NCBI GenBank assembly: GCA_000165345.1
Contig: CM000432.1
Location: 640,001 to 704,000 of the forward strand
Direction: 5' to 3'
Length of the DNA: 64,000 nucleotides
Shown: positions 5,202-43,300 of the stretch, in pieces
Position numbering within the stretch: position 1 is the stretch's first letter
How the letters are laid out: each line of letters opens with the position of its first letter
The notes under the pieces: generated by a model
Told to the model about the DNA's origin: nothing
The model's input: only the letters and a program-made list of their open reading frames with translations
Databases searched by the model: none
Program-made: the position numbers and the translations under genes

Positions 5202-6456
5202 TAATTTACATAAGTTTCCAAAAATTGTCTATGGCGCAATAAATTACAATAAATGGCGAATTAGATAATGCTCCAAGGATCAGTTCGGGTAAAATAAATC
5301 AAATTAACTGCAAGCCATTGGATAGCAATTAGTTTCACTCTTAGTATTAATAAAATATCTTTTCATTGGGCGTTATTATTTATCAAATGTTTTAACAATA
5401 GGGTGAAATTAATTCAATTAATGAAAATTTTTAGAAACAAAAATTATTATCTTGCAAAAATAGCAAAAAATGTTTAAATTTTCTCTTTTTTGAACATTAG
5501 ATTTGAAAATTCCGAAAAGTGTGATAAATAGCTTTATTTTCATCTTTAAAATGAATAACAAAGAAATTATATTCGCAAAAGTCAAAAATTCCTTAAGCCT
5601 AACCTCGATAAATTTAAGAATTAATCAATTAAGAAATTTAAGTAATTGTGAAGCTTCATGTGTACTGATAAACTAATTACACAAAAAGTAAGGCAAGGCA
5701 AATCAATTACCGACGTATCAAAGCGAACGGCTTCCTATTTAACATTAAATCTTCAAATTATTTTGTGCCTGACAAAGCTATATCAGATAAATAAACTACC
5801 ATTATAGTAAAAATGTAGGTTTAAAACCAGAAATCAGTATCCCTAGGTTCACTAATAGGCAATCTAAAATAAACGGAACGAAATATTTTCACAAATAAAT
5901 ATTGCCAATATACAGTGAAATTCGCTAATGAACAAAAAAAATGTAAAGCAAAAGTAACATCCAATTATCGAACTCTTAAAATAATGGTAGCAATTTTTCA
6001 AGTGAGTTCCATGTTTTTAAACTATAAAAAATAATAGGAATGCTCAAGAATGTAAAAGGGAGCTCTCCATTCTTAAACAAACTTGAGCATATTCTGTACA
6101 CAAAAAGTAGAGATACGCCATTTTATTCGTTTTTCCTTACATTTTGTATTTTGTGTTGCTGCTCACCCATTCTTTAGTTTTTCGGTTCGAAAGTTTTATC
6201 TTAGTTATTTAATTAATAATCGCTCAGTCATGTATGTAAGGATATAGTCGAAGAATTTTTAACTCCACTTTTTCTCAAAGTCTCTAAACTTAGTCGACAA
6301 TTTATCCTAGGAGGAGTTTAATATTCGAATGAAAAATAATAACTTACCTGGTTCGAAGTAATTTGTTTAATTATTAAGTTAGCTGAGTTTCTTATTTCCA
6401 AATTTTGTATGAATAAAGGCTTTAAAAAAAATGAATAGAGTTCGTACGGATAAAAA

Positions 6457-11417: not shown

Positions 11418-12190
11418 TTAATATATACCTAGTAATTCTTCCATCTCACTGCAAATTTTTGTGCAGCAAATGTACGAAGGCATACTAACATCAGATAACG
11501 ATATATAATGAGTAAATTTCGAAGTAAATTGGCCACAGCTGTTATTAGTCGCTGAAGCTCCAATAACAAAATTAATGTTATCTGCTCCGTTGCGAATTTT
11601 AGTTGCAATCTCATTTCTACAAAACTCTTGAAGGCTTACCTTTTTTGCCATTCTGGAAAGTCCAACAACTACTTCGCTATTTGAAAGATATTCTTCTATA
11701 GAACTATTTAATAAAGAGATGAGAACTGTATTTTCTTCGTCTGGAAGCTTAAGCTCTCCATTTGGAGAGGATAAGAATTCAGAAAAAACTTTGCTGAATA
11801 CCTTAAAAGATCTTGGAACACGGAATTTCGGGCTTACCCTAATCAATTTACCATCTAAATTTAAAATCAAAATATCTGAAAGACAGCCCGACTTGCATAA
11901 TGGGCTGTCAAGTAGCATTAAAAGCGAGTTATGGATTATATCAGGACGAAATTCGTCGCTATCAATTAATTTCATGTCTCTCTCGAGTACTTTTTCTTCT
12001 GTTAGGAGCTCTTTTTTCCCATTATTTTTATTTACAAACAATGAACTATTTTTCCAGAAATTAAATAATTTTATAGAGTATGTCTAATAACTTACGCATC
12101 AATTAGAATAATATTTATCCTAATACTTGCCAACTTGGAACTCGTTGATAATTGTTTCCTAATTTTATTACGCTTAATAAGCGAATCCAT
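11418..12190 (-). CDS. EMG1/Nep1-like rRNA pseudouridine-N1 methyltransferase, divergent paralogue A (two exons: 12190..12096 and 12045..11418; intron 12095..12046)
   Basis: The minus strand has an ATG at 12190 preceded by an in-frame TAA. Exon 1 encodes 'MDSLIKRNKIRKQLSTSSKLASIRINIILIDA' and ends in a GTAAGT donor. A 50-nt intron follows, ending in ...AAAAATAG. Exon 2 then continues the frame as 'ASLFVNKNNGKK...FRPDIIHNSLLMLLDSPLCKSGCL...RVPRSFKVFS...'. The join recreates the conserved EMG1 N-terminal 'vv-L--A-SLE' motif. The downstream RPDI-H-LL-LLDSPL-K-G-L and VPR-FKRF motifs are EMG1 hallmarks. Confidence 0.6.
12046..12095 (-). other. spliceosomal intron (50 nt, phase 2) of EMG1-like paralogue A
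   Basis: It has a GTAAGT donor and a TAG acceptor on the minus strand. Splicing restores the frame and a conserved Ala-Ala-Ser-Leu junction. Confidence 0.55.
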
Positions 12191-16406: not shown

Positions 16407-17771
16407 ATGCGTGAAGTTATTTCGATACATGTAGGGCAGGCAGGAATACAAATTGGTAATGCTTGTTGGGAATTATTTTGCCTTGAACATGGAATAAATC
16501 CAGATGGAACAATGCCCATGTCCGAGCAAAACATGGGTATTTCAGATGATGCATTCAATACGTTCTTCAGCGAGACTGGAGCTGGAAAGCATGTGCCCAG
16601 AGCAGTTTTTGTAGATCTGGAGCCAACTGTTGTTGACGAAATTCGTAGTGGGACATATAGGCAACTGTTTCATCCAGAGCAGCTTATTAATGGTAAGGAA
16701 GATGCGGCTAACAACTTTGCAAGGGGCCATTATACAGTAGGGAAAGAGATATTGGAAGTATGTTTGGATCGAATTCGTAAACTTGCTGACAATTGTACAG
16801 GATTACAAGGTTTTCTTATGTTTAATGCAGTTGGAGGTGGAACAGGAGCTGGCCTCGGGACATTATTACTAGAAAGGCTTTCTGTTGACTATGGCAAAAA
16901 ATCTAAATTGAATTTCTGTACATGGCCATCTCCGCAGCTTAGCACTGCAGTGGTAGAGCCATACAACGCCGTCCTTTCCACTCACTCTCTCCTTGAACAT
17001 GCAGATGTTGCTGTTATGCTAGATAATGAAGCAATATATGATATCTGTAGACGAAATTTGAACATTGAGCAGCCTGCTTATACGAACCTAAATAGATTAA
17101 TTGCGCAAGTAATATCCTCCTTGACTGCATCTTTGCGTTTCGATGGTGCATTGAATGTCGATATCACCGAGTTTCAAACCAATTTGGTTCCTTACCCAAG
17201 GATCCACTTTATGCTTTCATCATATGCTCCAATTATTTCCGCTGAAAAAGCTTTTCACGAACAATTAAGTGTTGCCGAGATTACTAATGCAGTTTTTGAA
17301 CCTCAAAATCAAATGGCTAAGTGTGACCCTAGACACGGTAAATATATGGCATGCTGCTTGATGTACAGAGGTGATGTTGTTCCAAAAGATACAAATGCAG
17401 CAGTTGCAACAATTAAAACTAAAAGAACTATTCAGTTTGTTGATTGGTGCCCAACAGGCTTCAAATGTGGAATTAATTATCAACCGCCGACTGTTGTGCC
17501 TGGCGGGGATCTCGCTAAGGTTATGCGTGCATGTTGTATGATTTCAAACTCAACTGCAATAGCTGAGGTCTTCAATAGGATGGATCATAAATTTGATTTA
17601 ATGTATTCAAAAAGGGCATTCGTGCATTGGTATGTCGGCGAGGGCATGGAAGAAGGTGAATTTAGCGAGGCAAGAGAAGACTTAGCTGCATTAGAGAAAG
17701 ACTATGAAGAGGTTGGAATTGAAATTGCAGATGGAGAAGATGAAGAAGTTCATTACGAGGGCGATTTCTAG
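16407..17771 (+). CDS. alpha-tubulin (intronless, 454 aa)
   Basis: It begins '[30 protein letters not shown]' and has the GGGTGAG nucleotide-binding loop ([11 protein letters not shown]). Full-length conservation is typical of alpha-tubulin. The C-terminus is '...[14 protein letters not shown]'. Confidence 0.97.
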
Positions 17772-17811
17772 TTATCCTTGTTCATTGAATTCTCTAGATT
17801 TAGGAGGTTTG

Positions 17812-17829
17812 GTTTACCGCCCGGCGGGC
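17812..17829. promoter_or_regulatory. GC-rich element GTTTACCGCCCGGCGGGC (contains 5-1-5 inverted repeat GCCCG-G-CGGGC) 25-40 bp upstream of the MFS transporter ATG
   Basis: An 11-nt perfect inverted repeat lies at 17819..17829. The 10-mer GTTTACCGCC (17812..17821) recurs at 20765..20774. Confidence 0.25.
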
Positions 17830-17853
17830 TCGTGTAGATTAGTATCTTAATCT

Positions 17854-19386
17854 ATGGAATTTTCCCTATTTAGTTATAGTCAAAAGCGGATCCTTGCTGC
17901 AGGTGTGTTGTCTTTATTATCCGGATATGTGCTTGGTGTGACTAACATACCGAGGGCTGTTTTGCTCAATTTTTTGTCCTTTTCTTGGATGAAATGGTCT
18001 ATGCATGTCCGTGGCTATCAAATTACCAATAGTTGTATAAATTTTGAGAGTTTTATCATGGTTCTCATCAATTCCTCACTTTTACTTGGTGCTTCCATAG
18101 GCTCTATTGCTTCTGTGTTTGTGGAAAGATATTTTGGTAAGGTTAAAGGCATTCTCTCTGCATATTTTTTGTTTGGTATTGGTTCTGTATTTTGTTTGAA
18201 CAAGGATTTAGTAATTTTCTTAATTGGAAGGGTTCTATGTGGTGCCGGAGTTGGATTTTCATGTAACTTAGTGCCATCTTATATTTTTGAGCTCACTAAC
18301 AAACAAAATCAAACATTATTTTCGACTTTACACAATGTATTATTTTGCTGTGGAATATTACTTAGCTATCTACTTTCAATCGGGGCTATGTATATAGCTG
18401 TTTATATCGTTAAATTTAGAAGCTCTATTAACAGTATTAATGAAACAGAACAAACGATAACCAACATTATTTACCATGATCCTGTGAGTCCAATGATTCA
18501 GAGCAATTTGGGAATATCCAAAAAAACTGGTATAGAATTTTCCATTACTGACCATTCATACTCTATTTTGTCAATTAGAATCTTGTTCATAGTACCTATA
18601 ATATTTTCCTTGATTCTTTCTTTAATTTGGATTTTAAAGCTAAATGGTGATACCCCATCTCATTATATAAAATTAAATGATATCCGTGCAGCAGAAGAGA
18701 CTACAAGACAAATATATGGAATATTCGACACAACAAGGATTATTAGTCAACTTAGAGAAGAAAATGAAAGAGAAAGTATATCAATTCTTAAACTTTTCAA
18801 GGCTATTTCTAAGTCACCGATGCGGAATGTATTTATTTTCATTCCCATATTAATTTGTACTGAAGTTTTTACTGGATATATCCCATTGGTTATGAACAGC
18901 AAGTTGATAATATCGCACTTTGGTATCATTGACCAAGTATCGTCAAATTATGTAGTATTAACTGGCTGTTTTTTAGTGAACTTTACTTTATCTGGTGTTT
19001 TCTTTGAATTATATATTGGAAGTAAAAGGCTATATATATTGGGATTAATTTTAGTCATATTTTCATATATTCCAATTTGCTCATTATTATTCTTTTCAAA
19101 TAATTTAATTGCAATGAGTCAACCCTTTATAATTTCGTTTATTTGCGTATTTGCATCATTCGGACTCGGTATAGTTCCTACTGCATGGAAGCTCGTATCT
19201 ACTTACATGACAATACAGTTTTATTTTTCAGTTACGCCTTACATGTCTGCGCTATTTTGGATTACCGCAGTGCTCTCAACTATTTTATCCGAACTACTCC
19301 CAATACTTGTATTTACATTTATCAATTCATGCTTTTCCTTCTTCGTCTTAATTTCATTTTTTATAATTAACTATCAGAATCCTTAA
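17854..19386 (+). CDS. major-facilitator-superfamily transporter, sugar-porter-like (510 aa, about 12 TM)
   Basis: It contains 'VERYFGKVKG' (cf. the D-R-x-G-R-[KR] loop) and 'IGRVLCGAGVGFSCNLVPSYIFELTNKQNQ' (cf. GR-x3-G-x-G-x6-P-x-Y-x-E, the sugar transporter signature). It has many hydrophobic helices and an ATG start. Confidence 0.5.
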   Translation: MEFSLFSYSQKRILAAGVLSLLSGYVLGVTNIPRAVLLNFLSFSWMKWSMHVRGYQITNSCINFESFIMVLINSSLLLGASIGSIASVFVERYFGKVKGILSAYFLFGIGSVFCLNKDLVIFLIGRVLCGAGVGFSCNLVPSYIFELTNKQNQTLFSTLHNVLFCCGILLSYLLSIGAMYIAVYIVKFRSSINSINETEQTITNIIYHDPVSPMIQSNLGISKKTGIEFSITDHSYSILSIRILFIVPIIFSLILSLIWILKLNGDTPSHYIKLNDIRAAEETTRQIYGIFDTTRIISQLREENERESISILKLFKAISKSPMRNVFIFIPILICTEVFTGYIPLVMNSKLIISHFGIIDQVSSNYVVLTGCFLVNFTLSGVFFELYIGSKRLYILGLILVIFSYIPICSLLFFSNNLIAMSQPFIISFICVFASFGLGIVPTAWKLVSTYMTIQFYFSVTPYMSALFWITAVLSTILSELLPILVFTFINSCFSFFVLISFFIINYQNP

Positions 19387-20693
19387 GGACTTATATTTTT
19401 CTGGTTCTTAAGCATTGTAAATATTTTAGTCAAAATTTCTATTCTCTTCTGGTTAATTATTTTTGTAAACGATGCTAACTGTGCAAAGTTGTGTCCATTA
19501 ATCATGCTTAACAATGCATTAATTAAACTTCGCTCCTTTTCTTGTTCTTCAATACGTTTTTCAACATCTAGAAGACCAAATAAGTTGCTTTCATTTATCT
19601 TAATTCGCACTTGAGTATTAATATTGTATTTGTTTGAGTCTCTGTACGCCATTGCTGAATTTTCATTCATATTAGAATTGATAGAATTGAACTCAGAGTT
19701 GTATTTTAGAATATTGAATACTTCTTTACGCCTCGAAGAAATAATTTTCCCTAGAGTCTCGTGTAGAAATTCAATCCCAAGAAACAGATACTTGTTCTTC
19801 AATAAGCAATATTTACTTGAATAATTCATCGTGATTTCTTGTTTTTTATTTAACAGAATAGTAATTTCTTCTCTCAACTCTTTATTTTCATCTTTTAATT
19901 GATTTATCTGTGAACTTAAGAAGTTAATTTTTAAATCTTTTTCCCCAAATATCAAAACTGCTTCTTTAGCATTATTATCCATTGATTTGATTTCTTCACA
20001 TAATTTTTTCTCACGAATTTGTTTAGATTCTATATCGCGTTCTAAAAACATGATTCTCCTTCTCAAATCTCTAATAATTAACTCGTATTGTCTTTGTATA
20101 ATATTAAGTTGAGAGAGATAAATTGACTTTTCTTTTTCACCATTTTCCCTAATGAGTTCACAGACCTCTTGTGAAATCCTACTTTCCTTCTGATTTATAG
20201 TGTTGATCAATTCTTTTAATGAATTATTAATATTATCTTTTTGTTCAAGTAACAAGTTGGCCAATGACTCATTTAAACTATTCAAGTCGTTGCTTTTGAT
20301 GATATTTGAAAGTAATTTCTCAATTATTTCTGCTGAGCTTATTTTTATTGTTTCATTGCTAGCCTCTATGCTTCTTTCAATATTGACATTAATGCATTTC
20401 TTATTTTGTTCACTAAAATCCAATATTTTTGATTCAATTAAGTCAGCAACTTTACAAAATGATGCTTGATTTTCCCTTGCTATCTCTTTTTTAATATTAT
20501 TAATTAATGTTTGTTCATTAGATGATGAAATTAAATTGCAAATTTCCTCATTCCTTCGTTTTTTTTCCAATATTGTCCTGACCTTAGCTGCCTTCTCTGT
20601 AATCTCAAATAAAGCGCTACCTAATTGGGTATTGTGGGCATCGTAGTTAGCAACCCAGCCATTATTATTCTTATTTTCCTTCTGAAAAACCAT
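19383..20693 (-). CDS. hypothetical coiled-coil protein (436 aa), Glu/Lys/Asn/Ile-rich
   Basis: It has an ATG at 20693 and a heptad-like composition (for example INQLKDENKELREEITILLNKKQEI). No catalytic motifs are present. Its stop codon overlaps that of the convergent upstream gene. Confidence 0.5.
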   Translation of the reverse strand: MVFQKENKNNNGWVANYDAHNTQLGSALFEITEKAAKVRTILEKKRRNEEICNLISSSNEQTLINNIKKEIARENQASFCKVADLIESKILDFSEQNKKCINVNIERSIEASNETIKISSAEIIEKLLSNIIKSNDLNSLNESLANLLLEQKDNINNSLKELINTINQKESRISQEVCELIRENGEKEKSIYLSQLNIIQRQYELIIRDLRRRIMFLERDIESKQIREKKLCEEIKSMDNNAKEAVLIFGEKDLKINFLSSQINQLKDENKELREEITILLNKKQEITMNYSSKYCLLKNKYLFLGIEFLHETLGKIISSRRKEVFNILKYNSEFNSINSNMNENSAMAYRDSNKYNINTQVRIKINESNLFGLLDVEKRIEEQEKERSLINALLSMINGHNFAQLASFTKIINQKRIEILTKIFTMLKNQKNISP

Positions 20694-20760
20694 TTTATTT
20701 TAATAGCATTAGTCCACAAATGACATTAAAATTTTTGTATTATTATGTCATGTCGATTTG

Positions 20761-20775
20761 TGGCGTTTACCGCCA
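20761..20775. promoter_or_regulatory. TGGCG-TTTAC-CGCCA inverted repeat / E2F-like element about 70-80 bp upstream of the coiled-coil gene ATG (minus strand)
   Basis: 5-bp GC arms flank TTTAC. It shares GTTTACCGCC with the element at 17812. Confidence 0.25.
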
Positions 20776-20811
20776 TACTTGATCTTTAAAACAATCATAA
20801 TTAGCGCAAAT

Positions 20812-22845
20812 CTATAACAAAGATATTAATAATTCTAATGAATCTTCAATTCCTCTGTATAATCTAATAACCTCTTGTTCAAAAATTGGATGAATATATG
20901 TGGAGTTTAATAGGCCAATTTCATACGCAAAATATATACGGTTTTTTATTTCAATTGACAAGTTAATGTATTGGTTTAATGTTTGTGCGTTCCATTCGCC
21001 CTTTAACCCATTAATAATTAAATTCTTCGCAGCAAACCTATGATAGCAATAAATGTATAGATAACATAGATCAATAGTGTAAAGTGTCATTTCTTGCATC
21101 AAAAAAATTAACTGTTGTATCATTTCACTTTCATTGCAGCTTAGAAATTTATTGTCTCTGTGATTAGTCAGATTTCGTTCAAAGTGCTTGCAGTAATTCT
21201 TAAATTTGTCGATTAATATACAAAAAATTTCATTTCTATGGTGCATAATCGAATTCGGCATATCCCATCCTGAAACCTTTTTTTCCCTGCTTTTAATTTT
21301 GGGGTTATTTAAATTATCTGAGAACAAAATGTTGCTATACCACCATTGATTAATACTTTTTGGGATGTGATTATTCTTTTCTAACTGATAATATGGCGAA
21401 TTTATGTGTAAAAACCAATCATCAATATTTATCTGAGAAAAAGAAATCCGTCTATCTAAACCGATGGTTGATTGAACAACAAAGCGAAAATCCCCATTGT
21501 TTATCGTTGCTACTTTTGTATGAATAGACGAATCAAGCAAAAGTACTGTTGAAAATATATTATCTAACTGTTTTTGTAATTTATCTAGCACAAAAAATAA
21601 CCTATATTCATACGCAAGCCATTCTTCAAAAACAATGTCTGAATTAATTGGAATTTTTTTGATTAAAAGATTTATCAACGACTTAATCTTTCGTAAATTA
21701 AGAAAGAATAATACTGGGAGAATTGTGAATAAGGAAAATATTGAATAAAAGGAATAAATCACTTTTTTCCATATTTTTTGTGAAAGTTTTATGCTGTTCC
21801 CAAAAAAAATAAATTTTTTCTGGAGATTTGTTATAAATCTTATAAAATTATCACTAGGAACAATACCTTCATGTAAGTTGCTATCATTTATTATCCCGTC
21901 ATTATTAAAAAACACTCCATTGATGTCTATTGATGATAAGTTTCTGATATTAGTTGACTGTAGTTCAATGCAATACCAATAAAAAGAGACCGTAATGAAT
22001 GATGTGAAATAAATACAAAATACAATGATAAACGAGTTCAATTCATTCTTCAATTTAAAACCTATCCTTAAAGAATAGAACTTATTTATAAGATTAAAAA
22101 AATTTGAGATTCCAGGAATATTTATCCCAAAGTAATATATAGGTAATGTTATAAATAAAGTTAGTATCGTAAAAATAAATGAATTCTTGATATTCCCTGA
22201 GAAGCCATTAAAAATAAAATAATCAATTACTTCAAAGAATTGTAACAAAAAGTTATTGTGTTCTTTTAGATTAAATTTTACTAATATTGGTTTTATAGAT
22301 ATTTGAGATGATAACAAGAAGATATTTTGATTCTTTCCAAAAAAACGAATAAATGATAATCCGCCAGCAACGAAAAAAAATGTCGACAAAAAATTAGGAA
22401 GTTCTAATAAAAACATTGTGCAAATATTCCAAAGTGTAAAAATTGAATAAGTTGCAGAAAAGAAGTGTAATGATAGCCATATCCATCTTGATGTAAAAAT
22501 CAATTCCCAAAGAACATATCTTGGAAAAGTAATTATCAAATCGTTAAACAATGTCAAGGATGCTGTTAAGTAGTGTTCGATGGTAATGCTCATCACTCTG
22601 CTAAATAATAGCAAGAGAAAAACAAGCTGGCATACTAAATTTGAAAATATTGATACAGATATTGTAGTTATAATCCCATTCTGAAACTTAAAATATAAGA
22701 ATAAAGTGTTAAATAAAGATAATATCGAACTTGTTGTACACCATATAATAAGAGGCCTAATGGTTGAGAGTAATGCCAAATACTTTAGCTGGCTATTAAA
22801 TGTAGTATTTGTGTGTTTATTCTCAATAGCGTTTTTACAATTCAT
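20812..22845 (-). CDS. hypothetical polytopic membrane protein (677 aa)
   Basis: It has an ATG at 22845. There are more than 10 predicted hydrophobic helices in the N-terminal half, followed by a large Asn/Ile-rich soluble domain. No motif is recognised. Confidence 0.5.
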   Translation of the reverse strand: MNCKNAIENKHTNTTFNSQLKYLALLSTIRPLIIWCTTSSILSLFNTLFLYFKFQNGIITTISVSIFSNLVCQLVFLLLLFSRVMSITIEHYLTASLTLFNDLIITFPRYVLWELIFTSRWIWLSLHFFSATYSIFTLWNICTMFLLELPNFLSTFFFVAGGLSFIRFFGKNQNIFLLSSQISIKPILVKFNLKEHNNFLLQFFEVIDYFIFNGFSGNIKNSFIFTILTLFITLPIYYFGINIPGISNFFNLINKFYSLRIGFKLKNELNSFIIVFCIYFTSFITVSFYWYCIELQSTNIRNLSSIDINGVFFNNDGIINDSNLHEGIVPSDNFIRFITNLQKKFIFFGNSIKLSQKIWKKVIYSFYSIFSLFTILPVLFFLNLRKIKSLINLLIKKIPINSDIVFEEWLAYEYRLFFVLDKLQKQLDNIFSTVLLLDSSIHTKVATINNGDFRFVVQSTIGLDRRISFSQINIDDWFLHINSPYYQLEKNNHIPKSINQWWYSNILFSDNLNNPKIKSREKKVSGWDMPNSIMHHRNEIFCILIDKFKNYCKHFERNLTNHRDNKFLSCNESEMIQQLIFLMQEMTLYTIDLCYLYIYCYHRFAAKNLIINGLKGEWNAQTLNQYINLSIEIKNRIYFAYEIGLLNSTYIHPIFEQEVIRLYRGIEDSLELLISLL

Positions 22846-25350: not shown

Positions 25351-28300
25351 TGGAGATTTTGGTTCAAGCATTGTAATTGATTTTATTAACAATAATTTAG
25401 AAAATATAAAATTAGTTGAAGTGTTTGACAAAGATGAAAGAAATATTGACTCCGATTACTTTTCAGTTTACAGTGAAAATGAATTTCCTGATAAAATATA
25501 TGAGAGGGTAAAGCATATATTTGAGTCAGTAGTAGGAAATAAATATTTTCCAGAGTTAGATGATCCACTTCTTTCATGCGGAATTGAATCAATTAAAGCT
25601 GTGGAAATATGTAATGCGCTTTCAAAAGAATTTAATATTGATTTCCCTGCAACTTTAATATTTGATTTTCCAACTCTGAGACTTTTAATAGAGCATATTG
25701 ACCTTCTCAAAAATGGAAATAAGGAATACTTACCCAATGAAATCACCAGTGTACCTGGAAAAACTACTAGTGAGTTTGTTATTTCTGGAATAAATGCTCA
25801 CTTACCTGGTTTTAGCTCGAACAACCCGTTTGTGAAGCTTTGGGAAGTAATGATGAATAGTGCAAATGTATTTTCTCCTGTTCCACATGAAAGATGGAAT
25901 GCATATTGTTTTAATGAAAAGAAGTCTATTTCTGCTATTCAAAAAATTAAAAACTACTATACTGATACAGGTGCTTATATTATTGGATCAGAATTTTTCG
26001 ATTTAGAAAAATTCAAAATACTTCCAATAGAAGTTGAGCATATGGATCCACAACAGAGATTACTATTAAGGGGAACCGAAAAGATTTTAAAACATGTTGA
26101 ACTCCCAACAAATAATTCAACTGGTGTTTATATTGGATGTTGTTCTAATGATTGGAGTCAAATCATTTCTAATTCTACTCATCTTTCTGTTTACTCTGGA
26201 ACAGGCGCATCTCCTTCAATACTAGCAAATAGAATCTCATTTTATAATGGGTTCGCAGGACCATCTATTACAATTGATACTGCATGTTCTTCAAGTTTAG
26301 TTGCATTGGATATCGCCCTTCATCATCTTCAACAAAACATAACAAATACTGCTTTTGTAGCAGGAGTCAACTCAATACTAAACCCAAACATATTTGTTTC
26401 GTTGTGTAAAGCAAAAATGCTCTCTGATACAGGAAAATGCTCACCTTTTGATGAAAGTGCAAACGGTTTTGTTAGGGGTGAAGGATGTATAATTGTATGT
26501 ATTCAACATATATCAATAGCAAAGAAAAAAATTGCAACAATTCTCGGTACATATGTTAATCAGGATGGAAAAACAACAACTCTAACTGCTCCAAAAGGAC
26601 CATCACAAGTATCTGCAATAAGGAATTGTCTAGGAATTTCGGGAATGCATCCATCAGAGATTAATTATATCGAATGCCACGGTACAGGCACCCCGTTGGG
26701 TGATCCGATAGAGGCAGGAGCAATAATGTCTGTTTTTAAAACTCATAATGAATACCAATATAATGTAACTCACATGAATTCTAATATCGTAATAGGTGCA
26801 TTCAAATCAAACATTGGTCATTTAGAAGGTGCAGCAGGTTTAGCTGGTCTTTTAAAAGTATTACTTGTTATGTCAAGAAGATTTTTCCCAGGAATAGGGA
26901 ATTTAATAAACATCAATACTCATATTAAAAAATTGTTAAATGATAAAACAAATCATAATCGAATTATTTTTCCTAATATGAATGAAGGAAAATATTTTTC
27001 AGAAATAGGAATTGAAGAAACACAAGTTTTGCGATCCGGAATATCATCTTTTGGATTTGGTGGTACTAATTCTCACGTAATTATTGAAGAAGGGGCAAAT
27101 ATTAACTCAATTTGGGATATTGAAACTGAGGAGAACTCTGACTTACAAGAAGGCAATTACTTCCCATGGACTGCAAGATTTCATCCCTTCATTTCAACAA
27201 TTAACAACAAAGACGAAATTTATTCTTACGCTATTTCGAAATTGAAGTGTAAAAAATATGTTATTGAGCACATTATTAATGGATTAAGCATATTTCCTGC
27301 ATCAGGATATATTGAGCTTGCTATTATAACTTGCAGGCTCGCAGCATTAGATATTTCTAGTGGTGAACAAATTGTTTATATTCAAAAAAAAAATTCTAGA
27401 GATGAAATTATAAGCGAGTTCAAGAAGAGTAACTTTGATATACTAACTAGAGAATCAAATATATACTTATTGAAAACTTCCCCCGTAGTAATAAAGAACC
27501 TAGAAATTATTTCTGTTTTCAATTTAGATAATCTGGAAAATGAGGAATTAAATGCAAACATACATATTAATGAAGGAAAAGTTTCTATTTATTCAAAAAA
27601 TAGGGATTATTTCAGTTGTAATGCAAATTTAATTTTAGATATTGAATCAAACAACAGAATGGAAATTCTGGATAATTCCTTTACAGTTGATGAATTTAAA
27701 AAAGTATGCATACTTAGAACAATTGTTCATGATGAATTATATGATTTGTTAAATAATTCAGGATATAATTATATAGGTAGATATCGTTCATTGGAATATG
27801 TTTCAATTGGAGATTCAATTGGGTATGGAAAGATTAAAACGGATGAATATGACTCTAGTCCTTTTTGCATCGCACCCTGGATATTAGATTCAGCGTTTCA
27901 AGTTTTAGGAGGATTCTTAATTACTAATGGGAATATTAATGGACAATTCATTCCAGTTAGAATTGAAGAAATGTTAATCAATTCCGATATATCGTATTCA
28001 GAACTTTATTCTTTAGTAAAAATCACAAATATTGAAGAAAAACAAATAATTTGTAACATTTGTTTGATAAATGAAAAAGGTTCTAAATTGATTGAAATTG
28101 TAAAAATGAATTTCATAAAAAATGAAATTCCAAACCAAAAAACAGTAGTAAATTTGGATCATAAAAAAAAAATAGATCATCTAAATTCCAAAGTAGATTA
28201 CGAAAATAATTATTTTGGTATAAAATTAGATTGGAGACCAGTTGCAGCGTCGGAATTATTTGAAAATAACGATAATGTAAATAGTTATAGTATTATTACA

Positions 28301-31300
28301 TCTGATAAGCAATTTTCTAGGATAAATTCAAGCCTAGAAAAAACAGGAAATAAAATAATTAAATTTAATAAAAATCTTATTAATTTTGATGGGAATATTG
28401 TTTTCTTTAATTGCAAATTAGAGGAAATAAAAATTTCTATTAAACAAGCAAAAAGTGGAGCAAGGTTCTACATATTAACGAAAAACGCAATACCAATTGA
28501 AAAAATAATTAGAACTGATGGTTTTTCATTTGATAACTTATATTGGGACTCGATTAATCAATTTATTTTAGAAAACAATATTATTATTTCCGTTATTGAC
28601 ATAGAATCATTTGACGAATTGAATAGCCAAATTAAATTTGGAATTAACTATCTTGGGAAAAACAATATTAAAAATAAGATACCAAATATTTTGTTTGATC
28701 ACTTAGTAATTAGAAATGTTCAAATGGCAAGGGAGAGAAATCTAACCTTGATTGGCTATTCCGCTACTCCAATTCGAATTGGAAATTGCATCGGTATAGA
28801 TAATTTTAAATATGAACTAACCTCAAGAGGAGAACTTAAAAACTTCAAAATAAAATATTCTGAGAAATTTAAAATAGAAGAATTAGGGGATGATGAGGTT
28901 AAGGTTCAAGTTAAAGCAGTTGGGTTGAATTTTAGGGATATATTAAATATAATGAATTTATATCCTGGAGACCCTGGTGAACCTGGTAGCGACTTTTCTG
29001 GAATTATAATAGGTATTGGTAATAATGTTAAACCATTCAAAATAGGTGATCATGTTTGGGGATTTGCAAGAGGTTGCTTCAAATCTCAGTTGGTAACAAC
29101 ATCTACATTAATTTCTAAAAAGCCAAGAAATTTATCATTTGAAGAAGCTGCAGCTTTACCCGTAATCTTTTGCACAGTAGAAGCTTCATTCAATGATTTA
29201 TATAAAGTAAAAAAAGGAGATTTTGTACTGATCCATGCTGCAACTGGTGGAGTTGGTATTGCAAGTGTTCAGTATTGTATTAATAAGGGCGCAATAGTAT
29301 TTGCAACATGTTCTTCTAACTCAAAAAAAAAATGGCTTTGTGGATTGGGAGTTCATTATGTCTCAAGTTCGAGAGATCACAAAATATTTAACAAAGAAAT
29401 GAATGAATTCTTAAATATTGCATCAAAAAGATACAGAGGTGGAAAAAATGCAAAGTTTGATTTAGTACTCAATTGTCTTTCTGGTGAATTTATTCATGAA
29501 TCCTTTAAGAAAATACGTTCAGGAGGAACATTTATTGAATTGGGAAAAAGAGAAACTTTGGACTATTCTCAGGCAAAATCAAATTATCCAGAGATAAATT
29601 ATTTGAAACTAGCAATCGATGAATTGGTTGTGGGTAATGCCAAATATATTCAATCATTACTTTCAAGGTATGAGACTAATAATTTAATTAATACAAATCC
29701 TACTTTGCCTGTTAAGGTTTTTAAAATGGAATCTTGTACTCTAGAAGCATTAAGGTTTATGCAAAAGGCTTCTCACATCGGTAAAATAGTATTAACATTG
29801 CCACCTCCTCAAACACTAATGTTTGAGGCTTTTAATTACAAGACATTGAATATAGTTAATCTTGAAAAGTTTTCTATTGAATTATTCAAAAGATATGAAT
29901 GTAGTGAGTTAGTAGATTTACTGGACCAAGAATCAAGAAATTTTGAGTTATACAAAGATTGCGAATCAAAGTTTATTAATGAAATGATTACTAAAGGAAA
30001 TATTATCGGGCCATTCGAGATATTCTCCAAATACAAGAATATGTTGGAATCTTTGTTTTCAGCTAGTCAATCAATACCTTTAAAGGTAATTAACTATATT
30101 ATTGATAATGAAATTTTTGAAGAATTACGTATTCTTATTATTTCTCCAATATTTCCAGAAATATTATTGGATAAAATTTTATCATTTAAATCAGGCAAGG
30201 TGGTATTTTTAACAATTTATGATGAAAACAACAAGGAGAGATGTTATAAAGTAGGTAATAATATAGTAAATTATGTTAGCAGTATTATTAACCTTAATTC
30301 TGAACAATTCGACTTTGCAATTATCACCTCAACATTCTTTGGAAAACTTTCATTTATCTCATTAATGGAAAATATAAAATTGATGCTTAAAAAAGGAGGG
30401 CCACTTTTTATTATCAACCCATTTGGAGAAGGTTTAACATCAAGTATTATCAAACAGCAATATTGTAGTTATACATCAAAAATAATTGTTCCAATTAAAT
30501 TTAGAGTTGATTTTAATGTTGAAAACGTTATTGATGAATTTAAGTTGATAAATTGTGACAAAAATAAAACAGTTAAATTCTACTCTTTCGAAACAAATTA
30601 TTGGGATTCAGAATTTGTAAAGCAAAATAATACTGACGATAATGGATTCAAAAACAATTTTCATATAATTTTATCCCATAAAGAAGACGAAATATCTTTA
30701 TTTGCTGCTACTAAGTTGTTAAGCGAAGCAGGTGCAAACAATTTTGTGTATATATCAACGGAAAAAATTACAATTAATTACCCATTCAAGTACAAATTTG
30801 AAATTGAAAAAGAAAACTTTGTTCAAAATTTCAAAAGAATATTAAGTGGAAATGGAATTTACAAAATTTCGGGAATAATATGTTTGCCCTTAAATCATTT
30901 GGAATGCAAAGAAATTTCAAATATTCTTTGGGATATTCATTCAATTTCATTTATTTCAACTACATCTATTCAATATTTCTTACTTTGCTCTTGTAATGAC
31001 AAAAATAATTTAATATTAGAAACATTTTGTAGATACAGACGTAACATTGGTCTTCCTGGGCAAGTTGCTTTTTGGAATTATAATTCAGAACAAGTTTCCA
31101 ATCTTAATCATGGCTCATTTGTACAAGCTGCAATTAAACTTGCAATTGTAAGTAATTCTGCTTGTATTTACAAACCAATGAAAAATCAAGTTGAAAATAG
31201 CGAGGCTTGGGAAACTAACAGTAAAATTGTGTTTGATAAACAACATATAACGAACATAATAGTAAACACAATAAATGATATTGTAGGAATTGAAAAAATT

Positions 31301-34300
31301 GACTTTAACACTCCACTAATTGAATTAGGACTCGACTCTTTATCCGCAGTTGAAGTTAGAAATGCAATTTCTAACGAATTAAATATCGTTTTACCAATTA
31401 CCACATTATTTGATTATCCAACCATAAATTCGTTATCAGATTTTATACTAAACATTTCAAATACATCAACAAATATCTTATTACCAAAAACAAATAAAGA
31501 CAATATTGGATTAATTATTTCTCAAAATATCCCATCACTAAAAAATATTATTTTCTCTCAAGATAATAAATCTAAAAATCTAACTTCAAAACTATCAATT
31601 ACTGGAATTGGCTGTAGGCTACCTGGAAATACAAATTCCCCAATTGAATTTTGGGAAAGAACTTTGCTTTCTATGCAAACCTGGTCATCAGAAGTTCCAT
31701 TAAGTAGGTTTGATATTGATGAATTTTATTTAAATATAGATGATTATAAAAATATTAACTACTTATCAAAAAATCTAACTTATTCAAGGCATGGGACATT
31801 TATCGAAAGTATTGATTTATTTGATAATGATTATTTTAATATTACAACTTATGAATCTTCAACTATGGACCCACAGCAAAGAATATTATTGGAAACCACA
31901 AGCGATGCATTACATAGCTCAGGATATAACCCAAAGAATATTTCCAACTCAAATATTGGTGTATTTGTAGGATGTTGTGGGACTGACTGGAACTATCTTT
32001 CCACGAAATTAAATATGACAGCAACTTCATTTACAGCAACAGGCGCAGCTGCTTCAATTATCTCGAATAGACTTTCATTTATCTATGGCATTAAAGGACC
32101 CTCTGTAACAATTGATACTGCATGTTCGTCTTCATTAGTTGCATTAGATATTGCAAAAAAAGATATTAATTTTGGTAATATAGAAACAGCAATTGTAGCA
32201 GGCGTGCAGCTTTTATTATCTCCCTTGTATTATATAGTTTTTTCCAAAGCTAATATGCTTAGTCCTAGGGGAGAATGTAGAGCATTTGATGAATTATCTG
32301 ATGGATTCTTAAGAGGAGAGGGTTGTATATCATTGATAATAGAAAACCATTTAAAATCCTTTGGAAAAAAAATATATGGTCGAATTTGTGGTACAGCTGT
32401 AAATCAGGACGGAAAAAGTGCGAGCTTAACTGCCCCGAATGGACCTTCTCAAAAACGTGTAATTATTAATGCAATTGAAGATTCTTGCATTTCGAATAAT
32501 GATATATTTTATATAGAATCTCATGGAACTGGAACACCTTTAGGGGATCCAATAGAATTCGGTGCAATATCAGATGTTTTTAAAAATAGGGCAAATAAGC
32601 TTTACATTGGAACTCTAAAACCTAATATTGGTCACTTAGAAGGTGCTTCTGGAGTTGCTGGAATTTTGAAAGCTATATTAGTAGTTAATAATGGAGTAAT
32701 TCCTCCGAATATTTTAATAAATAAGTTAAATTCAGGTTTATGTTTTGATGATTCTAATATGAACATAGTATTTCCTACAAATAAAGTTGAAACCAATTCA
32801 AAAAGTTTAATTGCAGGAGTATCATCATTTGGATTTGGTGGAACAAATTCTCATATAATTGTAGAAACAGGTGACAGTGTGAATTCATGGGAATTACCTA
32901 GAATAGATTTCAAAAGAAAAAAATTTCCATGGATTACTCCAGCACATCCATATATTGGACCAAAAATCTCAGGATCTGATAATCTGTCTCACCCATCAGA
33001 ATTAGGTCTTATAATTGATGAAATGAGTAATATTACAAATATTAAAAAACCTGACTCAAATATAACCAGATTTGTAAGAAATGTTGGTGAAAATGTGTTC
33101 TCATCAATAGTTGGTCATGTGATACAAGGAAAGATTATTTTTCCTGGATCTGCATTTATTGAAATGTCAATAGGTGGACTCATTAATTACTCTATTCGGA
33201 GTGGAATTAAAGATGTAAGCTTACTTACTATTAGCAATATTCAATTCATTAAGCCTCTAATTTTCCCAAATGAATTAGGACGGAATCCTCAAGGAAAATT
33301 AATATGTGACATTTCTCCATATGAAAATAATAATAGGAAATTAAATATACGTATTTCAACATCAGGAATTGAATATGGTATTGACGAAATGATCTATCAT
33401 TCAACATTTACTGCAGAAATTAGTAATGATGACAATTTGAAGCTTTCTGATGAGACAATAAACTTTGATAAATGCTCAAATTTTAATTCTGATCAATTTT
33501 ATTCAGAATTAAATGAAATAGGGCTAAATTATTCTGAAAAATATAAATCTATTAGAAAAATATATAAAAACAAGACTGAGATATTTGGAATTATTGAAAT
33601 TGATTCTTTAAATCGAGAAATTGATACATTTTTCTTACATCCTTCATTATTAGATGGATGTTTTCAATTATTCGCTTTATTTATTGAAAATCATGAAAAT
33701 AAAGCCAATAAACCATTTATTCCTGTGAGTATTGAAGAAATGATATTTAAACCAATTTTCAATAATAATAAATATATTGTTCCTTATAACTCATTAACTA
33801 ACTTGAAATTTATTCATCCAATAAATAGATTATTTGCTTGCATTAAAAACAAAAAAATACTAAATAGCGAAGGAATAAAAGTAGACATAAATATATATAT
33901 TAGAGACGAAGGAACTGATGGGTTAATACAAATATGTGAAATTAGAAATCTGCACTTCAGAGAATTGATTCCGATGAAAACCATAAACTATCTCCCAATA
34001 AAAGATCATTACTCATGGATATCTACTTATAGAGAATTAGAACACAAATTTGATAATGATGAAGAATTAAATAAGCTAAAGTTTCTTTTTACATCTTTAG
34101 AAGTGAATAAATTATCACTCGAACAGTTTGATTACTTTGATAACAATAAAATTCTGAATTTGATTCAAGAAAATATTTTTTCCTTCAGTACTATACCTGT
34201 ATATATTACAAGCACAAACGAAAAAGATTCATATAAAGAGCTTATTTCTATACAAAGAACTCTTCAAAACATTTATAAAAATATTGATTCATATAATAAA

Positions 34301-37300: not shown

Positions 37301-40300
37301 GAATGTAATATGGCCATTGCATTTGGAGTACAATTGAATTTATCTCCGAACAATTTTATTGTATTTAGCAAAGCAAAAATGTTGTCCAAAAATTCTGAAT
37401 GTAGAAGTTTTGACAAAGATGCGGATGGATTTGTAAGAGGAGAAGGGTGCGGAGCTATTGTACTATCGAACAATAATATTAAAATTAAAAAAAAATGGGG
37501 AAGGATATTAGGATCATCTACAAACCACAGCGGAAGATCAATTTCCTTAACAGCCCCAAATGGAGTTGCACAGCAAAAAGTTCTTTCCACCGCACTAAAT
37601 ATTGCTCGGGAAGAAAATAAATCCGATATTAGGCCTGGATATATAGAATGCCATGGTACTGGAACATTACTTGGAGACGCAGTTGAATTTGGTGCAATTA
37701 AAGAAGTATATAAAGATATGTACAAAATTATCGATAGTAACATCGACTCTCCACTTATTTTAAGTACAGTAAAGCCACAAATTGGACATTTGGAGGGTGC
37801 TGCAGGAATTGTTGGATTTATCAGACTTCTAGTAGTTTTATCATTTGGAGCAGTTCCAGCACTGTTAAATTATAAAAACATCAATCCACATATTGAAGTT
37901 GAAGATTTCAATATCGTTTTCCCTAATAATTCAACGTGGAAATTAAATAAAAATGTGGGAGGAGTTTCTTCATTCGGATTTGGTGGTGCAAATTGTCATA
38001 TATTAGTAGAGGGAGTTAAACAAAAGAATCCACTAATCAAAGATAATGAAAAATTGATATTTATGTTTACAGGGCAAGGATCTCATTACGATAAGATGGG
38101 TATTGAATATTATAATTCTAATGAAATATTTAGGAAATCAATAGATGAATGTTCAGATTTTCTGGACAAATTCCTCGATATTCCATTGAAAGAAGCAATG
38201 TTTATAGAAGGAGCCAAAGAAAAAATTAATATTGATGTTGAAATTTATAATCAACTTTCAATAGTTTCAATTGAATATGCTGAAATGATGTTATTAAGAA
38301 GTATTGGAATTTTTCCAGACATTATTTTTGGTCATTCTTTGGGCGAATATTTAGTGGCTGTTGCGGCTGGAGTAATGACAATTGAAATTGCATTGGAAAT
38401 AATATATCGAAGAGGTATAGTTATCTCTAAATTTGGAAAAAAAGGGATTATGGTAGCAGTAAGACGTTCTGAAGAACAAATTAAAAAAGCTATAAAACAA
38501 TTTGAAAATAGTCTTTCTCAAGAGCAAAAACTGAAAATAAGTCTTGGATTAATAAATGCTCCAAAAAATTGCATTATTAGTGGAGAAGAAAATCAAGTAA
38601 TGGCAGTATTAGAATTATTGGATTCCAGTAAGTCATATAAAAAACTTCCAGTTTCATATGCATTTCATTCAGTAATGTTTTCTGAGATAAGCAACATTTT
38701 ACATGAAGAAATAAAAAATAAAAACCTTAATTATATAGATAAAAAAGTCATAGTTTTTTCATCAATTTTGGGTTTAATGGTTAAAGATGAAATGTCAAAT
38801 TTAAACTATTGGTCAAGCCAGTTATTTAAACCTGTCAATTTTTATTCGATGATTAAAAATTTAGAAGAATTCATTATAAAAAATGAAATTAAAGTGAAGA
38901 ACATAATAGAGATTGGTCCAACTTCGTTGTTAACTCCGCTTTTAAAAGCTTCTTCAAAAGGGATATTAAACAACGCAAAGTTTTATTCCTTGATGAAAAA
39001 AGACTCGAATGTTAATCCAACTGAAGTTCTAGAAAATATTTGTTCTAATGTTAATATAAAAATCGCTAATAGATCTTCAAATGAAAATAATTTACCAAAA
39101 ATTGATTATCACCTAAAATGGAATGAAATATCACATCCATTTTTATTAAAAAGAATGCTTTCACCAATAATTAATTTAAATAAAATAGTTAAAGATTTAA
39201 GCTTTGTTTATGCGACTCCTTTGACGGAAAAAATATCTAAATTTTTCCACGGATATAAAAGAAATGGTGCATTCGTTATGCCAGAGATAGCCTTAATCGA
39301 AGTAATTTCAGCTGCAATAAACGATATTAATTCTCAAATTAGTATGATCGATAATGGGTTTTTATCGGTTGAGTCGAATGTTCCGATTTTCCAGCTTGAA
39401 AAAATCCATTTTGGAATTCCATGGGAATTTAGAACTTACAAAACTCAAGATGATAGACCTACGCTGATTTTTACCTTAGATTCTCGTAGAAATATTTCAA
39501 TTAGTTCAAATAAAGGAGGCCACATTAATGCAGATTTAAAAAAGAACTCAATACATCACCTGGATGCAAAATTAAATGTTTATTTCCCTGAGAATAAAAG
39601 AGAGTCAATTAAATTCCCAATACATGCTTTAGAAAATTCTGAAGCTTTATTATTTGAAGAAATTTACGGGCCAATAATTAAAGGATCTTTCCCAGTTATA
39701 AATTCAAGTAAATGCATTCGAAAGATAGTATTAAAAGAAAATGAATCATTTTCAATTTTAAAATTAAATTTCGATATGGAAACAGACTTAGAACCATCTG
39801 GAATTAATATGGGGTTATTTTATTCTATTGACAGATTTATGAATGTTCATCCAATGATACTTGAGTCATCAATTCACACAATTATGTTGGCTGCAATAAA
39901 AAATAATAAACATTTTGATTTATATTTTCCTACTAAAATTGACCTACTTAATATATCTAGCATTGATTTTACAAGGAATGTCTATGTTCATTCTGTTATT
40001 AGAGAACAAAATGAAGAATATATATTGGGAGATATATTGATTTATCATGAAAATCAATTTGATTTTCCTATTGTTGAAATAAGAAAAATTAGACTCGAAA
40101 AACTTAATTTCGAAAATAAAATACCTTTACTTTTAAATCAAGAATATGCATTTTTAAAAGAAGAATGGGAATTGCAAAATAATAATGAGCAAAATCATTA
40201 TGATAAAATCATTATATTTGGTTGTTCAAAAACATTTGATTTGTTTAAAAAAAACCTGGCCCAGAATATTTATTTTGTTGAAAATGAGAAAGATCTTCTG

Positions 40301-43300
40301 ACATATCTAAATTCAATCTCATCCTCAAAAATTTTAATTATAAACACATTTTTCCGAAGCGGAACTAAGTTTGAAGTTATTAGCAATGAAATTGAACTAA
40401 TTAAAGAAATAATTATTTCAAATGATAATTTCCAAAAAAAACAGAATAATTTTATCACGTGGTGGATAGTAACTAAGGGAGTAGTACTATTTAGAAATAA
40501 TCAAAGTATTAATAACTCAATCTGGAAAAAAATCAAAGAAATAAAGGAAAAAATGAGAGATTATTGCAGGGTATTTATGACAGATACAGACGATATTTAC
40601 TCAATTAATAATATAATTAGTTATCAAAAAACAGATGAATGTTGCTACAGGAATGGAGCTATTTACTTTTTAACGTTAAATTGTAAACAGTTAATTAATC
40701 ATAGGGTTTTTGATTTACGGAAAAATAAGAATCTGTCCATAGAAATAATTATGGTTGAAAATATAATAAATGAAAGCTTCAAATTCTTAGGAAAAGTTGT
40801 TTATTCTTGTAATACAAATATTTTGGGTCAGTACGTAATTATCGAGAATAATAATGATATTCAACACGAGATAAAAATAGGTGATTTAGTTATCACTGAA
40901 GTTGATAATAAATATTTGATTGGAATCGATGATTATAATTATTTTGGTCTAAGAAGCAATGTTGCACTTCCAAAAATTCAATATATTTTTGATAAAATTC
41001 CATTTAATTTGTTTGAAAATATAGTTATTAAAATTTCTAATAAAAACAAATTAGTAAAAATATATGAAATATGTTTCAGTATAATAATTAATGTATTAAA
41101 GCTAAATTCAGTGAACAAATCAAGAAAAATAACAGTAATTGGTAATTATGATGAGAAATTTTCGAAAATAATTCTATCTTTGGGTTGCAAATTAAATATT
41201 GATAATTTATCTAAGCCAGATTGTTTAATACAAATAGGTGAAGAAACCAAATTATTTAATATTAATCAAGATCCAATTGCTAAATTTAGAATTGGAATTA
41301 ATCATGAAGTTATAAATGAATGCAATAATGAAACTATACTTAATCCTAATTATCAAGAATCTAATCAACTTAAATTAGAGTTATCAAATCCTTATTTAAA
41401 TAAAACAGAAAAAATTAACTTTGTTAATAAGTTTGGATTAATACTAATTACAGGAGAAATGAAAAACATTACTTTGATAATAAACTGTTTATTTGCTTTG
41501 GGTTACAAAAAAATTGCATTAGTTAAAATGGACAATAATGCTCTTTCTGAAAAAATTTCTGAATTCGGAGAAAGTATTAAACTATTTAACTGTTTACCTA
41601 ACAAGGTTTCGATAAACAATTGTTTTAATAAAATTATTTCCGAATATCAAAATTTGGAAATAACTGGTTATATCCACTTAAGCTCTATTGAAATACTTAA
41701 AACAGATCAAGAAAAAGTGAATAATTATTCGCTAATTCCCTGGAATATCCACAATTTAGTTACAAAAAAAGGATATAATCTAACATTTTTCGTGATAATT
41801 TCAGGTATTTTTGGGCAACTTGATCAATTAAAATTTGGAATTGCTGAAAATTTATTTGAAAACCTAACATACCATAGAAACGAATTATTAAAACTTCCTT
41901 CAACTTATATTCTGGATAACAAAATTGTAAATTATATTGGAGGCAATAAAAGTTCATTATTTTCTATTGAAAATTATATTAATAAAATACCATTATTTAC
42001 AAATCTATTCAGTGAAATAATTAATAGTAAATTAAATGGAACTATAGTCCCCATTGAAATTGATGAAGAAGTTATTAATCAATTATCTAAAAATAGTACT
42101 GAAAAATCTAAGAAACTTTATTTTAAATTTGTTGAAAAAATATCTAGGAAAAATTTCAATAATATCAAATATGTTAAATTTTCAAATAATTTGTCTAAAA
42201 GAAAAAAGTTGATCGAAGAAATGGTATTAAAATCAGTAAATTCATTAATTCCAGAAAATAAGAAGTATAGCATGGATGATTCATTATTATCGATTGGTAT
42301 TTCTTCATTAAGTGCTATAGAACTTGTAAATAAATTGTCTTCAGAATTTAACTATGAAATATCACCATCTTTACTTTACGAACACCCTTCTATTAATTCA
42401 ATTATTAATTACTTGTTAAGTTTAAGTCATCATTTTGACGAAAATATTGAATATTTTGATGACAAAATAAATAGTGAAATTATTGAGAAAAATACTCTGC
42501 TAAATATTAACAACTACTTCATAAATCCTGAAATATTGGTTTCTTCAGTCAATAATGATTTAGATTTAAACTCCAGAATGTGTATTGTTGGTATGGCAAA
42601 CAACATCCCTGTTGCAGGTGCCTCAGTAGGTTTATTTTGGCATCTATTGAAAGAAAATAAAGATTTTGTAATAGAGGCACCAATAAATAGAATTGATTGG
42701 GGAGATTCTTTAAATACTGATCAATCAATTATTGGAAAAAGCTATTGTAATCATGGAACATTTATAGAAAATGCACATCTATTTGATAATGAATTCTTTA
42801 AAATAAATGAATATGAAGTTTTACAGATGGACCCACAACAAAGATTAATATTGGAAGTTTGTTTTGATGCATTACATGTTTCAGGATATAAAAATTTAAA
42901 TGAAATGACCAATTTAAATTTTGGGGTTTTTATTGGTAGTTGTACAAATGATTGGTTGGAAAAATTGTCTGACTTAGATTCCATAAATGCATATTCAGGT
43001 ACTGGGTTTTCGTCATCACTAATATCTAATAGGGTTTCCTATTCTTTTGGTTTAACTGGACCATCATTAACTATTGATACTGCATGCTCATCTTCACTTG
43101 TTTCTCTAAATATTGCAGTCCAAAATATAGAAAAAAAACAATGTAATGGTGCAGTTGTAGCAGGAGTGCAAATGACATTAAACAAGACGACATTTATTGT
43201 TTTTTCTAAATCGATGATGTTATCTAAAGATGGAAGATGCAAATCATTCGACTATTCTGCAGATGGCTTTGGAATTGGAGAAGGGGTTGCTGCAATAGTA

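Follow-up and report, generated by a model that had tools for sequence, protein, structure and literature searches.

In type I fatty acid synthases (FAS) and polyketide synthases (PKSs), the modifying region has the ketoreductase (KR) as its hub. We take the KR of DEBS module 3 to be an example of the redox-inactive KR0 or C-type class, and some C2-type KRs act as epimerases. Mammalian FAS carries a pseudo-KR and a pseudo-methyltransferase. Reductive domains are also said to work across module borders: the dehydratase (DH) of epothilone module 5 reportedly acts for module 4, and cross-module enoylreduction is reported for azalomycin F. In tetromadurin module 12, a KR that lacks the catalytic Tyr and has a deletion in the NADPH site stands beside a seemingly active DH, and the authors invoked the KR of the adjacent module (PMC7489565). 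An inactive KR has been described in echinoderm PKSs (PMC11414698). Here we describe a related case in module 1 of a giant PKS encoded in a 64,000-nt stretch of DNA, referred to as the window (NCBI GenBank assembly GCA_000165345.1, contig CM000432.1, positions 640,001 to 704,000, forward strand; nucleotide positions below are counted from its first letter). CpPKS1 of Cryptosporidium parvum is a 1,516-kDa, seven-module PKS encoded by 40 kb (PMC6568194). The giant PKS of the window is encoded by a single, intronless open reading frame (ORF) of 40 kb on the + strand. Its likely start is the first ATG, at nt 23261, which gives a protein of 13,413 aa; because the computed mass of 1516.3 kDa equals the published one (PMC6568194), the ORF was identified as CpPKS1.

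The segment of interest (KR1 remnant; Table 1) is located between the enoylreductase (ER1) and the acyl carrier protein (ACP1) of module 1, matching the position of KR2 and KR6 in their modules. We consider it likely that this segment is a KR catalytic subdomain, that it had given up both NADPH binding and catalysis by the time the gastric and intestinal Cryptosporidium lineages diverged, and that it has since been retained as a folded, non-catalytic scaffold of the KR0 type linking ER1 to ACP1. As in the KR0 or C-type KRs, exemplified by tetromadurin KR12 and KR14 (PMC7489565), the segment is KR-derived, occupies the normal KR position, has lost the Tyr and the intact NADPH site, and is retained in its module. 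As in tetromadurin module 12, the dead KR is paired with an apparently working DH. Unlike in the known KR0 or C-type domains, the decay is much deeper, with the Gly loop, Arg, Lys, Ser and Tyr all gone and the domain undetected by KR and SDR (short-chain dehydrogenase/reductase) profiles. A further difference is that both the DH and the ER paired with the KR1 remnant are intact and that a 280-aa insert precedes it. The remnant also belongs to an orphan megasynthase of a eukaryote, an apicomplexan. An epimerase role, such as that of some C2-type KRs, is not expected of the remnant if the extender unit is malonyl.

An original prediction, generated by a model from the letters of the window, had placed a KR-like region with degenerate motifs at nt 30630–31150, and the two peptides it quoted both lie within this interval in the +2 frame, inside the ORF. 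Its description of the tail was borne out, as YRRNIGLPGQVAFWNY resembles the tails of KR2, KR5, KR6 and KR7. The closest is that of KR5 (FRRKLGMPGNSLQW, compared with YRRNIGLPGQVAFW in module 1), with YRRNIGLPG....W common to both. The losses it had claimed, of the GGxGxLG loop and of the catalytic Tyr, were also found in the hhalign mapping, where no GGxGxxG was present and Asn2600 took the Tyr position. The peptide proposed to replace the glycine loop, YKISGIICLPLNH, was misassigned, being the equivalent of strand β4 (YKISGIICLPL against ivGiiHaAGvL in the KRs); the residues at the loop position are LSHKEDEIS, directly preceded by the strand β1 equivalent FHIIL. The aWNiH landmark is recognizable as LWDIH. 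The basic residue after KR strand β2 is taken to bind the 2′-phosphate of NADPH, and the Arg found there in the paralogous KRs (LlsRs) is absent; the window has ISTEK at this place, and the orthologues have MLSNN or VLSNN. This Arg and the catalytic Lys (PK), which is gapped, are losses beyond those of the original prediction. S2590 aligns with the catalytic Ser; C. andersoni also has Ser here, but C. serpentis has Asn.

With Lys gapped, the Ser position not conserved and Tyr replaced by N2600, the KR1 segment was found to have no catalytic Lys-Ser-Tyr set with the Asn of YxxxN. Neither the KR nor the adh_short model of Pfam matched the KR1 segment of the window, C. andersoni or C. serpentis, even at E ≤ 10, and a profile hidden Markov model (HMM) of KR2/5/6/7 gave a non-significant match to the tail only (E 0.19, six-sequence database). 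The segment is also not a structural (pseudo-)KR subdomain, as it follows ER1 and carries the αF–βF tail YRR..GLPG....W.

The homology of the segment to KRs was assessed with hhalign, in which aa 2479–2632 aligned colinearly with KR2/5/6/7 across the whole catalytic subdomain (152–163 columns). The posterior alignment covered 163 columns with sum_probs of 88. Over 200 column shuffles, sum_probs averaged 13.6 and never exceeded 70.1, so that none of them came up to the observed value. The KR resemblance is more than chance by this comparison of profiles, and the alignment, which the original prediction had proposed as a check, points to a KR-derived segment whose NADPH and catalytic motifs are lost. 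A model of aa 2470–2690 was built with AlphaFold2 (AF2) from an alignment of the three orthologues only; the KR paralogues were kept out, since their presence would force a KR fold on the model and render the reasoning circular. It reached a pTM of 0.60, with pLDDT of 67–83 over residues 12–120 and an SDR-like alternating β/α order. The structure prediction, also proposed earlier as a check, is in line with a Rossmann/SDR-type fold for the remnant, with low confidence in its C-terminal third. The remnant is thus predicted to combine an SDR fold, the location between ER and ACP and colinearity with the KRs, as a KR subdomain would.

Could the segment be an unrelated α/β linker, with a YRR..GLPG tail that arose by chance or convergence? 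The missing Pfam matches and the tail-only, non-significant HMM match would agree with such an origin, as would the Foldseek list, which includes generic three-layer α/β folds (lumazine synthase, flavodoxin) with weak E-values. However, the full-length colinear alignment beat 200 of 200 shuffles, the segment lies in the expected place, and the best Foldseek TM-scores went to FabI, itself an SDR (TM 0.50). The KR3 remnant of module 3, moreover, is caught partway through the same process of decay, and we regard an origin other than from a KR as extremely unlikely. In the KR3 remnant, the loop reads ITGEMKNITL, the PK lysine is deleted and the Tyr is changed to Phe (KFGIAEN). Decay has gone less far there than in the KR1 remnant, and the domain is accompanied by a weak DH signal only.

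Orthologous segments were available from C. andersoni and C. serpentis. Both repeat the motif losses, with ICPDLDEVS at the loop, CSHGDSN or CSSGNSN at the Tyr position and no conserved Lys. The remnant is 42% identical to that of C. andersoni, with one gapped position in 154 residues; the corresponding values are 41% for DH1, 34% for DH2 and 28% for the linkers, while ER1, at 60.5%, is the second-highest of the catalytic domains compared, after KS2 (KS, ketosynthase). The blocks SG.ICLP, QYFLLCS and CRYRRNIGL are invariant, the last of them making the YRRNIGLPGQVAFWNY tail the best-conserved part of the remnant. Ratios of nonsynonymous to synonymous substitution (dN/dS) were computed for C. 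andersoni against C. serpentis, with a Fisher test for dN < dS. The remnant gave 0.26 (p 0.005), DH1 0.165 (p 3e-8), ER1 0.105 (p 9e-12) and DH2 0.35; the ER1 value was the lowest among the catalytic domains compared, and only that of the carrier ACP0 was lower. Because the same losses recur in three species and the segment is conserved, the sequences indicate that the catalytic loss predates the gastric/intestinal split and that the fold has been maintained since. The order of genes upstream of the PKS (window 16407–22845) is common with the gastric species and comprises a tubulin gene, a sugar-transporter-like gene and two minus-strand genes. The tubulin is 98% identical to its gastric-species counterpart, and the other three are at 28–33%, which conveys the depth of divergence over which the KR remnant persisted.

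The original prediction had left room for a KR1 that is highly diverged yet active. Such a KR would depend on non-canonical residues for NAD(P)H binding and for protonation of the substrate, and module 1 would be a normal fully reducing module. The SDR-like predicted fold and the purifying selection on the segment fit such an enzyme, and the state of DH1 and ER1, both intact and constrained, would be explained most simply if their own module had a functional KR. A candidate residue is the conserved Y2593 (LQYFLLCS), seven residues upstream of the canonical Tyr position; it is placed within the predicted strand βE, however, and not in helix αF. The Gly loop, the Arg after strand β2, Lys, Ser and Tyr are missing or unconserved in all three species, no Pfam SDR or KR model scores, and the conserved acidic residues of the loop (EDE or DLDE) would repel the pyrophosphate of the cofactor. 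We therefore find an active KR1 very unlikely, and return to the retained dead KR. As for the central idea of the original prediction, a KR-derived region that lost its motifs agrees with the hhalign result, the predicted fold and the two orthologues, and it was the assignment of the glycine loop that failed.

The intact state of DH1 and ER1, noted in the original prediction, was evident from HIINGLSIFP, LDSAFQ and LIHAATGGVGIA, all of which are present. DH1 retains HxxxGxxxxP and DxxxQ, and its catalytic His and Asp are also kept in the orthologues. A non-elongating module 1, with an inactive KS or ACP, was considered and rejected, since the Cys/His/His of KS1 and the Ser of ACP1 are intact. 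No acyltransferase (AT) was found between KS1 and DH1 in the domain map. The stretch between DH1 and ER1 resembles the pre-ER and pre-KR regions (structural KR subdomain) of modules 2, 5, 6 and 7, scoring 22.3 in hhalign, where shuffles scored 13.2 ± 2.0 and at most 20.2.

Silent DH1 and ER1 had been offered as another alternative. According to this explanation, KR1 is dead, DH1 and ER1 are idle on the module-1 intermediate and kept for architecture only, and the β-keto group is passed on to give a ketone in the product. By the logic of colinearity a dead KR does lead to a β-keto product, and CpPKS1 tolerates dead domains, as the KR3 and ER4 remnants show; retained inactive reductive domains are known from animal FAS-like PKSs (PMC11414698). 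In CpPKS1, however, the domains that are truly unused have visibly decayed: in modules 3 and 4, reductive domains went into decay jointly, leaving the KR3 and ER4 remnants and a weak DH3. ER1, by comparison, has a full NADPH motif together with the high identity and low dN/dS given above, DH1 has its His and Asp in the orthologues, and both have been conserved across a divergence that left the poorly conserved neighbouring genes at only about 30% identity. We thus hold idle DH1 and ER1 to be unlikely. The decayed ER of module 4 aligns with ER1, ER2 and ER6 (E 1e-14 to ER2), its NADPH motif HAATGGVG has become FSKLNGVF, and no DH or KR was detectable in module 4.

Because they are intact and strongly constrained, DH1 and ER1 are probably still used. 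What then remains of the original alternatives is that, as we infer, reduction is supplied by the KR of another module. DH1 and ER1 could take a β-hydroxy intermediate from such a KR, of which KR2 is the nearest, or they could serve the intermediates of modules without a DH and an ER of their own. The remnant itself would act architecturally in the reducing part of module 1, a role suggested by the central place that the KR takes among the modifying domains of such enzymes. Tentatively, one may go further and propose that module 1 relies on inter-module ketoreduction in one of these two ways, and that the dead KR and the methyltransferase-like insert together form a dedicated scaffold enabling the ACP traffic; this we regard as possible, at odds well short of even. 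Epothilone and azalomycin F reportedly offer a precedent for a reductive domain acting on the ACP-bound intermediate of a neighbouring module, as DH1 and ER1 would need to do.

We must also note several points that weigh against a dead KR retained as a scaffold beside working DH1 and ER1. The raw hhalign score of 21.5 exceeds that of the shuffles, 14 ± 2.5, only weakly (z about 3), with a P-value of 0.007–0.03 and a reported probability below 6%. The mean pLDDT of the AF2 model is 56.5 and falls below 50 past residue ~140, a part that covers the would-be Tyr helix and the tail, and Foldseek returned no match to this model at E ≤ 0.001. The two orthologues are ~95% identical to each other, and the dN/dS of the remnant rests on about 22 substitutions. 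The constraint on ER1 could instead reflect a structural or dimerisation role, and the modelled remnant may still harbour a non-canonical active site. Finally, the scaffold role and the cross-module ketoreduction are both deduced.

The spacer between ER1 and ACP1 measures 490 aa, whereas the equivalent in modules 2 and 6 is only ~290 aa long. This surplus is accounted for by the 280-aa insert, which had gone unnoticed in the original prediction and has no counterpart in those two modules. The insert contains motifs reminiscent of methyltransferases (FDFAIITSTFFG and LMLKKGGPLFIINP). Its only sequence match was DUF268 (E 0.085), and an internal phmmer search yielded a marginal match to the ER4 remnant only. 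Foldseek listed structures of S-adenosylmethionine (SAM)-dependent methyltransferases with a probability of 0.97 and E of at least 4e-3, for a model with pLDDT around 40–50, and there was no match to the insert at E ≤ 0.001. The GxGxG SAM-binding motif I is absent from the insert (RILIISPIFPE). An AF2 model of the whole 501-aa ER1–ACP1 spacer had a mean pLDDT of 41 and at most hinted, weakly, at a methyltransferase-like insert. Conservation of the insert extends to C. andersoni and C. serpentis, and it is under purifying selection (dN/dS 0.32, p 5e-5). A second structural KR subdomain or a duplicate of the KR was rejected, as the insert resembled neither in hhalign. Possibly, the insert represents a degenerate class I methyltransferase-like α/β domain. 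A methyltransferase-like domain that follows an ER would be an unusual arrangement.

The pseudo-domains of animal FAS and FAS-like PKSs offer a second comparison. Like these, the KR1 remnant appears to be a non-catalytic, Rossmann-type remnant kept as a structural part, possibly together with a degenerate methyltransferase-like segment. In animal FAS, however, the pseudo-methyltransferase and the pseudo-KR precede the ER, and the catalytic KR that follows the ER is active. In CpPKS1, it is the catalytic subdomain after the ER that forms the remnant, and the putative methyltransferase-like insert, for which the support is weak, also follows the ER.

Retained dead KRs are already well known in modular PKSs, and the KR1 remnant is in this respect informative and not surprising. 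It stands out by how far it has decayed, by having an intact DH and ER as partners, by the additional insert, and by its setting in an orphan apicomplexan megasynthase. The product of CpPKS1 was predicted to be a C28–C38 chain released by the reductase domain (PMC6568194), and the enzyme was proposed as a drug target (PMC2995488); its cluster has been described as not deorphanized (PMC10394414). The product may be linked to oocyst-wall lipids, a connection suggested by the proposal that coccidian PKSs supply these lipids with their polyhydroxy or long acyl chains (PMC3760245). C. parvum is a major diarrhoeal pathogen, and predicting what its orphan 1.5-MDa synthase makes depends on knowing which of the reductive domains are functional. 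If KR1 is dead while DH1 and ER1 are live, either the product has a ketone where module 1 acts or processing is not colinear, and naive counting of domains would give a wrong product structure under either outcome. If ketoreduction does take place between modules, CpPKS1 would be an assembly line of a eukaryote that is built to depart from colinearity, and the product prediction would change. The KR1, KR3 and ER4 remnants stand side by side as stages of decay, and are useful for studying the conversion of FAS-like into PKS modules.

Table 1. Positions of the giant PKS ORF, the module-1 domains, the landmarks of the KR1 remnant and other domains of CpPKS1 in the window
Feature	Window position (nt)	Strand	Residues (aa)	Remarks
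Giant PKS ORF	23198–63502	+		13,434 codons counted from the tool-called TTG
KS1	25772–27088	+	859–1297	Cys (DTACSSS), His (HGTGT) and His (NIGH) all kept
DH1	27245–28087	+	~1350–1630	HIINGLSIFP, aa 1358–1367; LDSAFQ, aa 1563–1568
DH1–ER1 spacer	28088–28891	+	1631–1898	Stretch like a structural KR subdomain
ER1	28892–29794	+	1899–2199	NADPH motif LIHAATGGVGIA intact
Extra segment (insert)	29795–30631	+	2200–2478	280 aa, between ER1 and KR1 remnant
KR1 remnant	30632–31093	+	2479–2632	Probable KR catalytic-subdomain homologue without catalytic motifs
NADPH-loop (TGGxGxxG) position	30671–30697	+	2492–2500	LSHKEDEIS; ICPDLDEVS in orthologues
Strand β4 peptide	30860–30898	+	2555–2567	YKISGIICLPLNH; aligns with KR ivGiiHaAGvL
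Catalytic-Tyr position	30992–31009	+	2599–2604	CNDKNN; Asn2600 for Tyr, Gly in C. andersoni and C. serpentis
KR tail	31034–31081	+	2613–2628	YRRNIGLPGQVAFWNY; helix αF to strand βF, as in KR2/5/6/7
ACP1	31268–31447	+	2691–2750	Phosphopantetheine Ser motif LGLDSL
AT of module 3	~38057–39022		4954–5275	
KR3 remnant	~41429–41920		~6078–6240	Module 3
ER4 remnant	~44765–45520		~7190–7440	Module 4, decayed ER
AT of module 7	~57491–58372		11432–11725	

The domain map of CpPKS1, built from Pfam and internal phmmer searches, comprised an AL-ACP loading unit, seven KS-containing modules and a C-terminal reductase (R) as the release unit. Module 1 reads KS-DH-ER-[490 aa]-ACP; modules 2 and 6 are both KS-DH-ER-KR-ACP; module 3 is KS-AT-(weak DH)-(decayed KR)-ACP; module 4 is KS-(decayed ER)-ACP; module 5 is KS-KR-ACP; and module 7 is KS-AT-KR-ACP. 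An AT was detectable in only two of the seven modules, 3 and 7, and no AT remnant was detected in modules 4 and 5. In modules 1, 2 and 6, the DH starts ~50–65 aa past the KS, a layout like that of trans-AT synthases. We rejected a pseudogene or an assembly artefact, since the 40-kb frame is open and identical features recur in two other species.

Among 1.8 billion representative proteins, the only relatives belonged to a C. andersoni/C. serpentis cluster of contig-end fragments annotated as ‘polyketide synthase’ (C. andersoni OII77756.1). The assemblies of both species (loci L001, 10001–21733, and L002, 10001–21761) end inside the PKS gene, at ~codon 3900. Because of these breaks, the database proteins of 3834 aa (‘polyketide synthase’) and 3902 aa (‘hypothetical protein’) are contig-end fragments and not full genes. 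A tandem-repeat protein from the same search was spurious, matching through GLPGEVSIWDY only. A homologue search with aa 2200–2700 returned nothing at E ≤ 1e-3, in a collection apparently without a full-length Cryptosporidium PKS1, and a metagenome scan with the orthologue alignment gave no match. Searching the PDB sequences with the orthologue profile produced chance matches only, to a flagellar protein at E about 0.5.

The GC skew, calculated over 24001–63502 in 2-kb bins, was positive in all bins but one (30001–32000), which contains the KR1 remnant. The cumulative GC skew climbed steadily along the coding strand of the PKS, with a GC content of ~23–32%.

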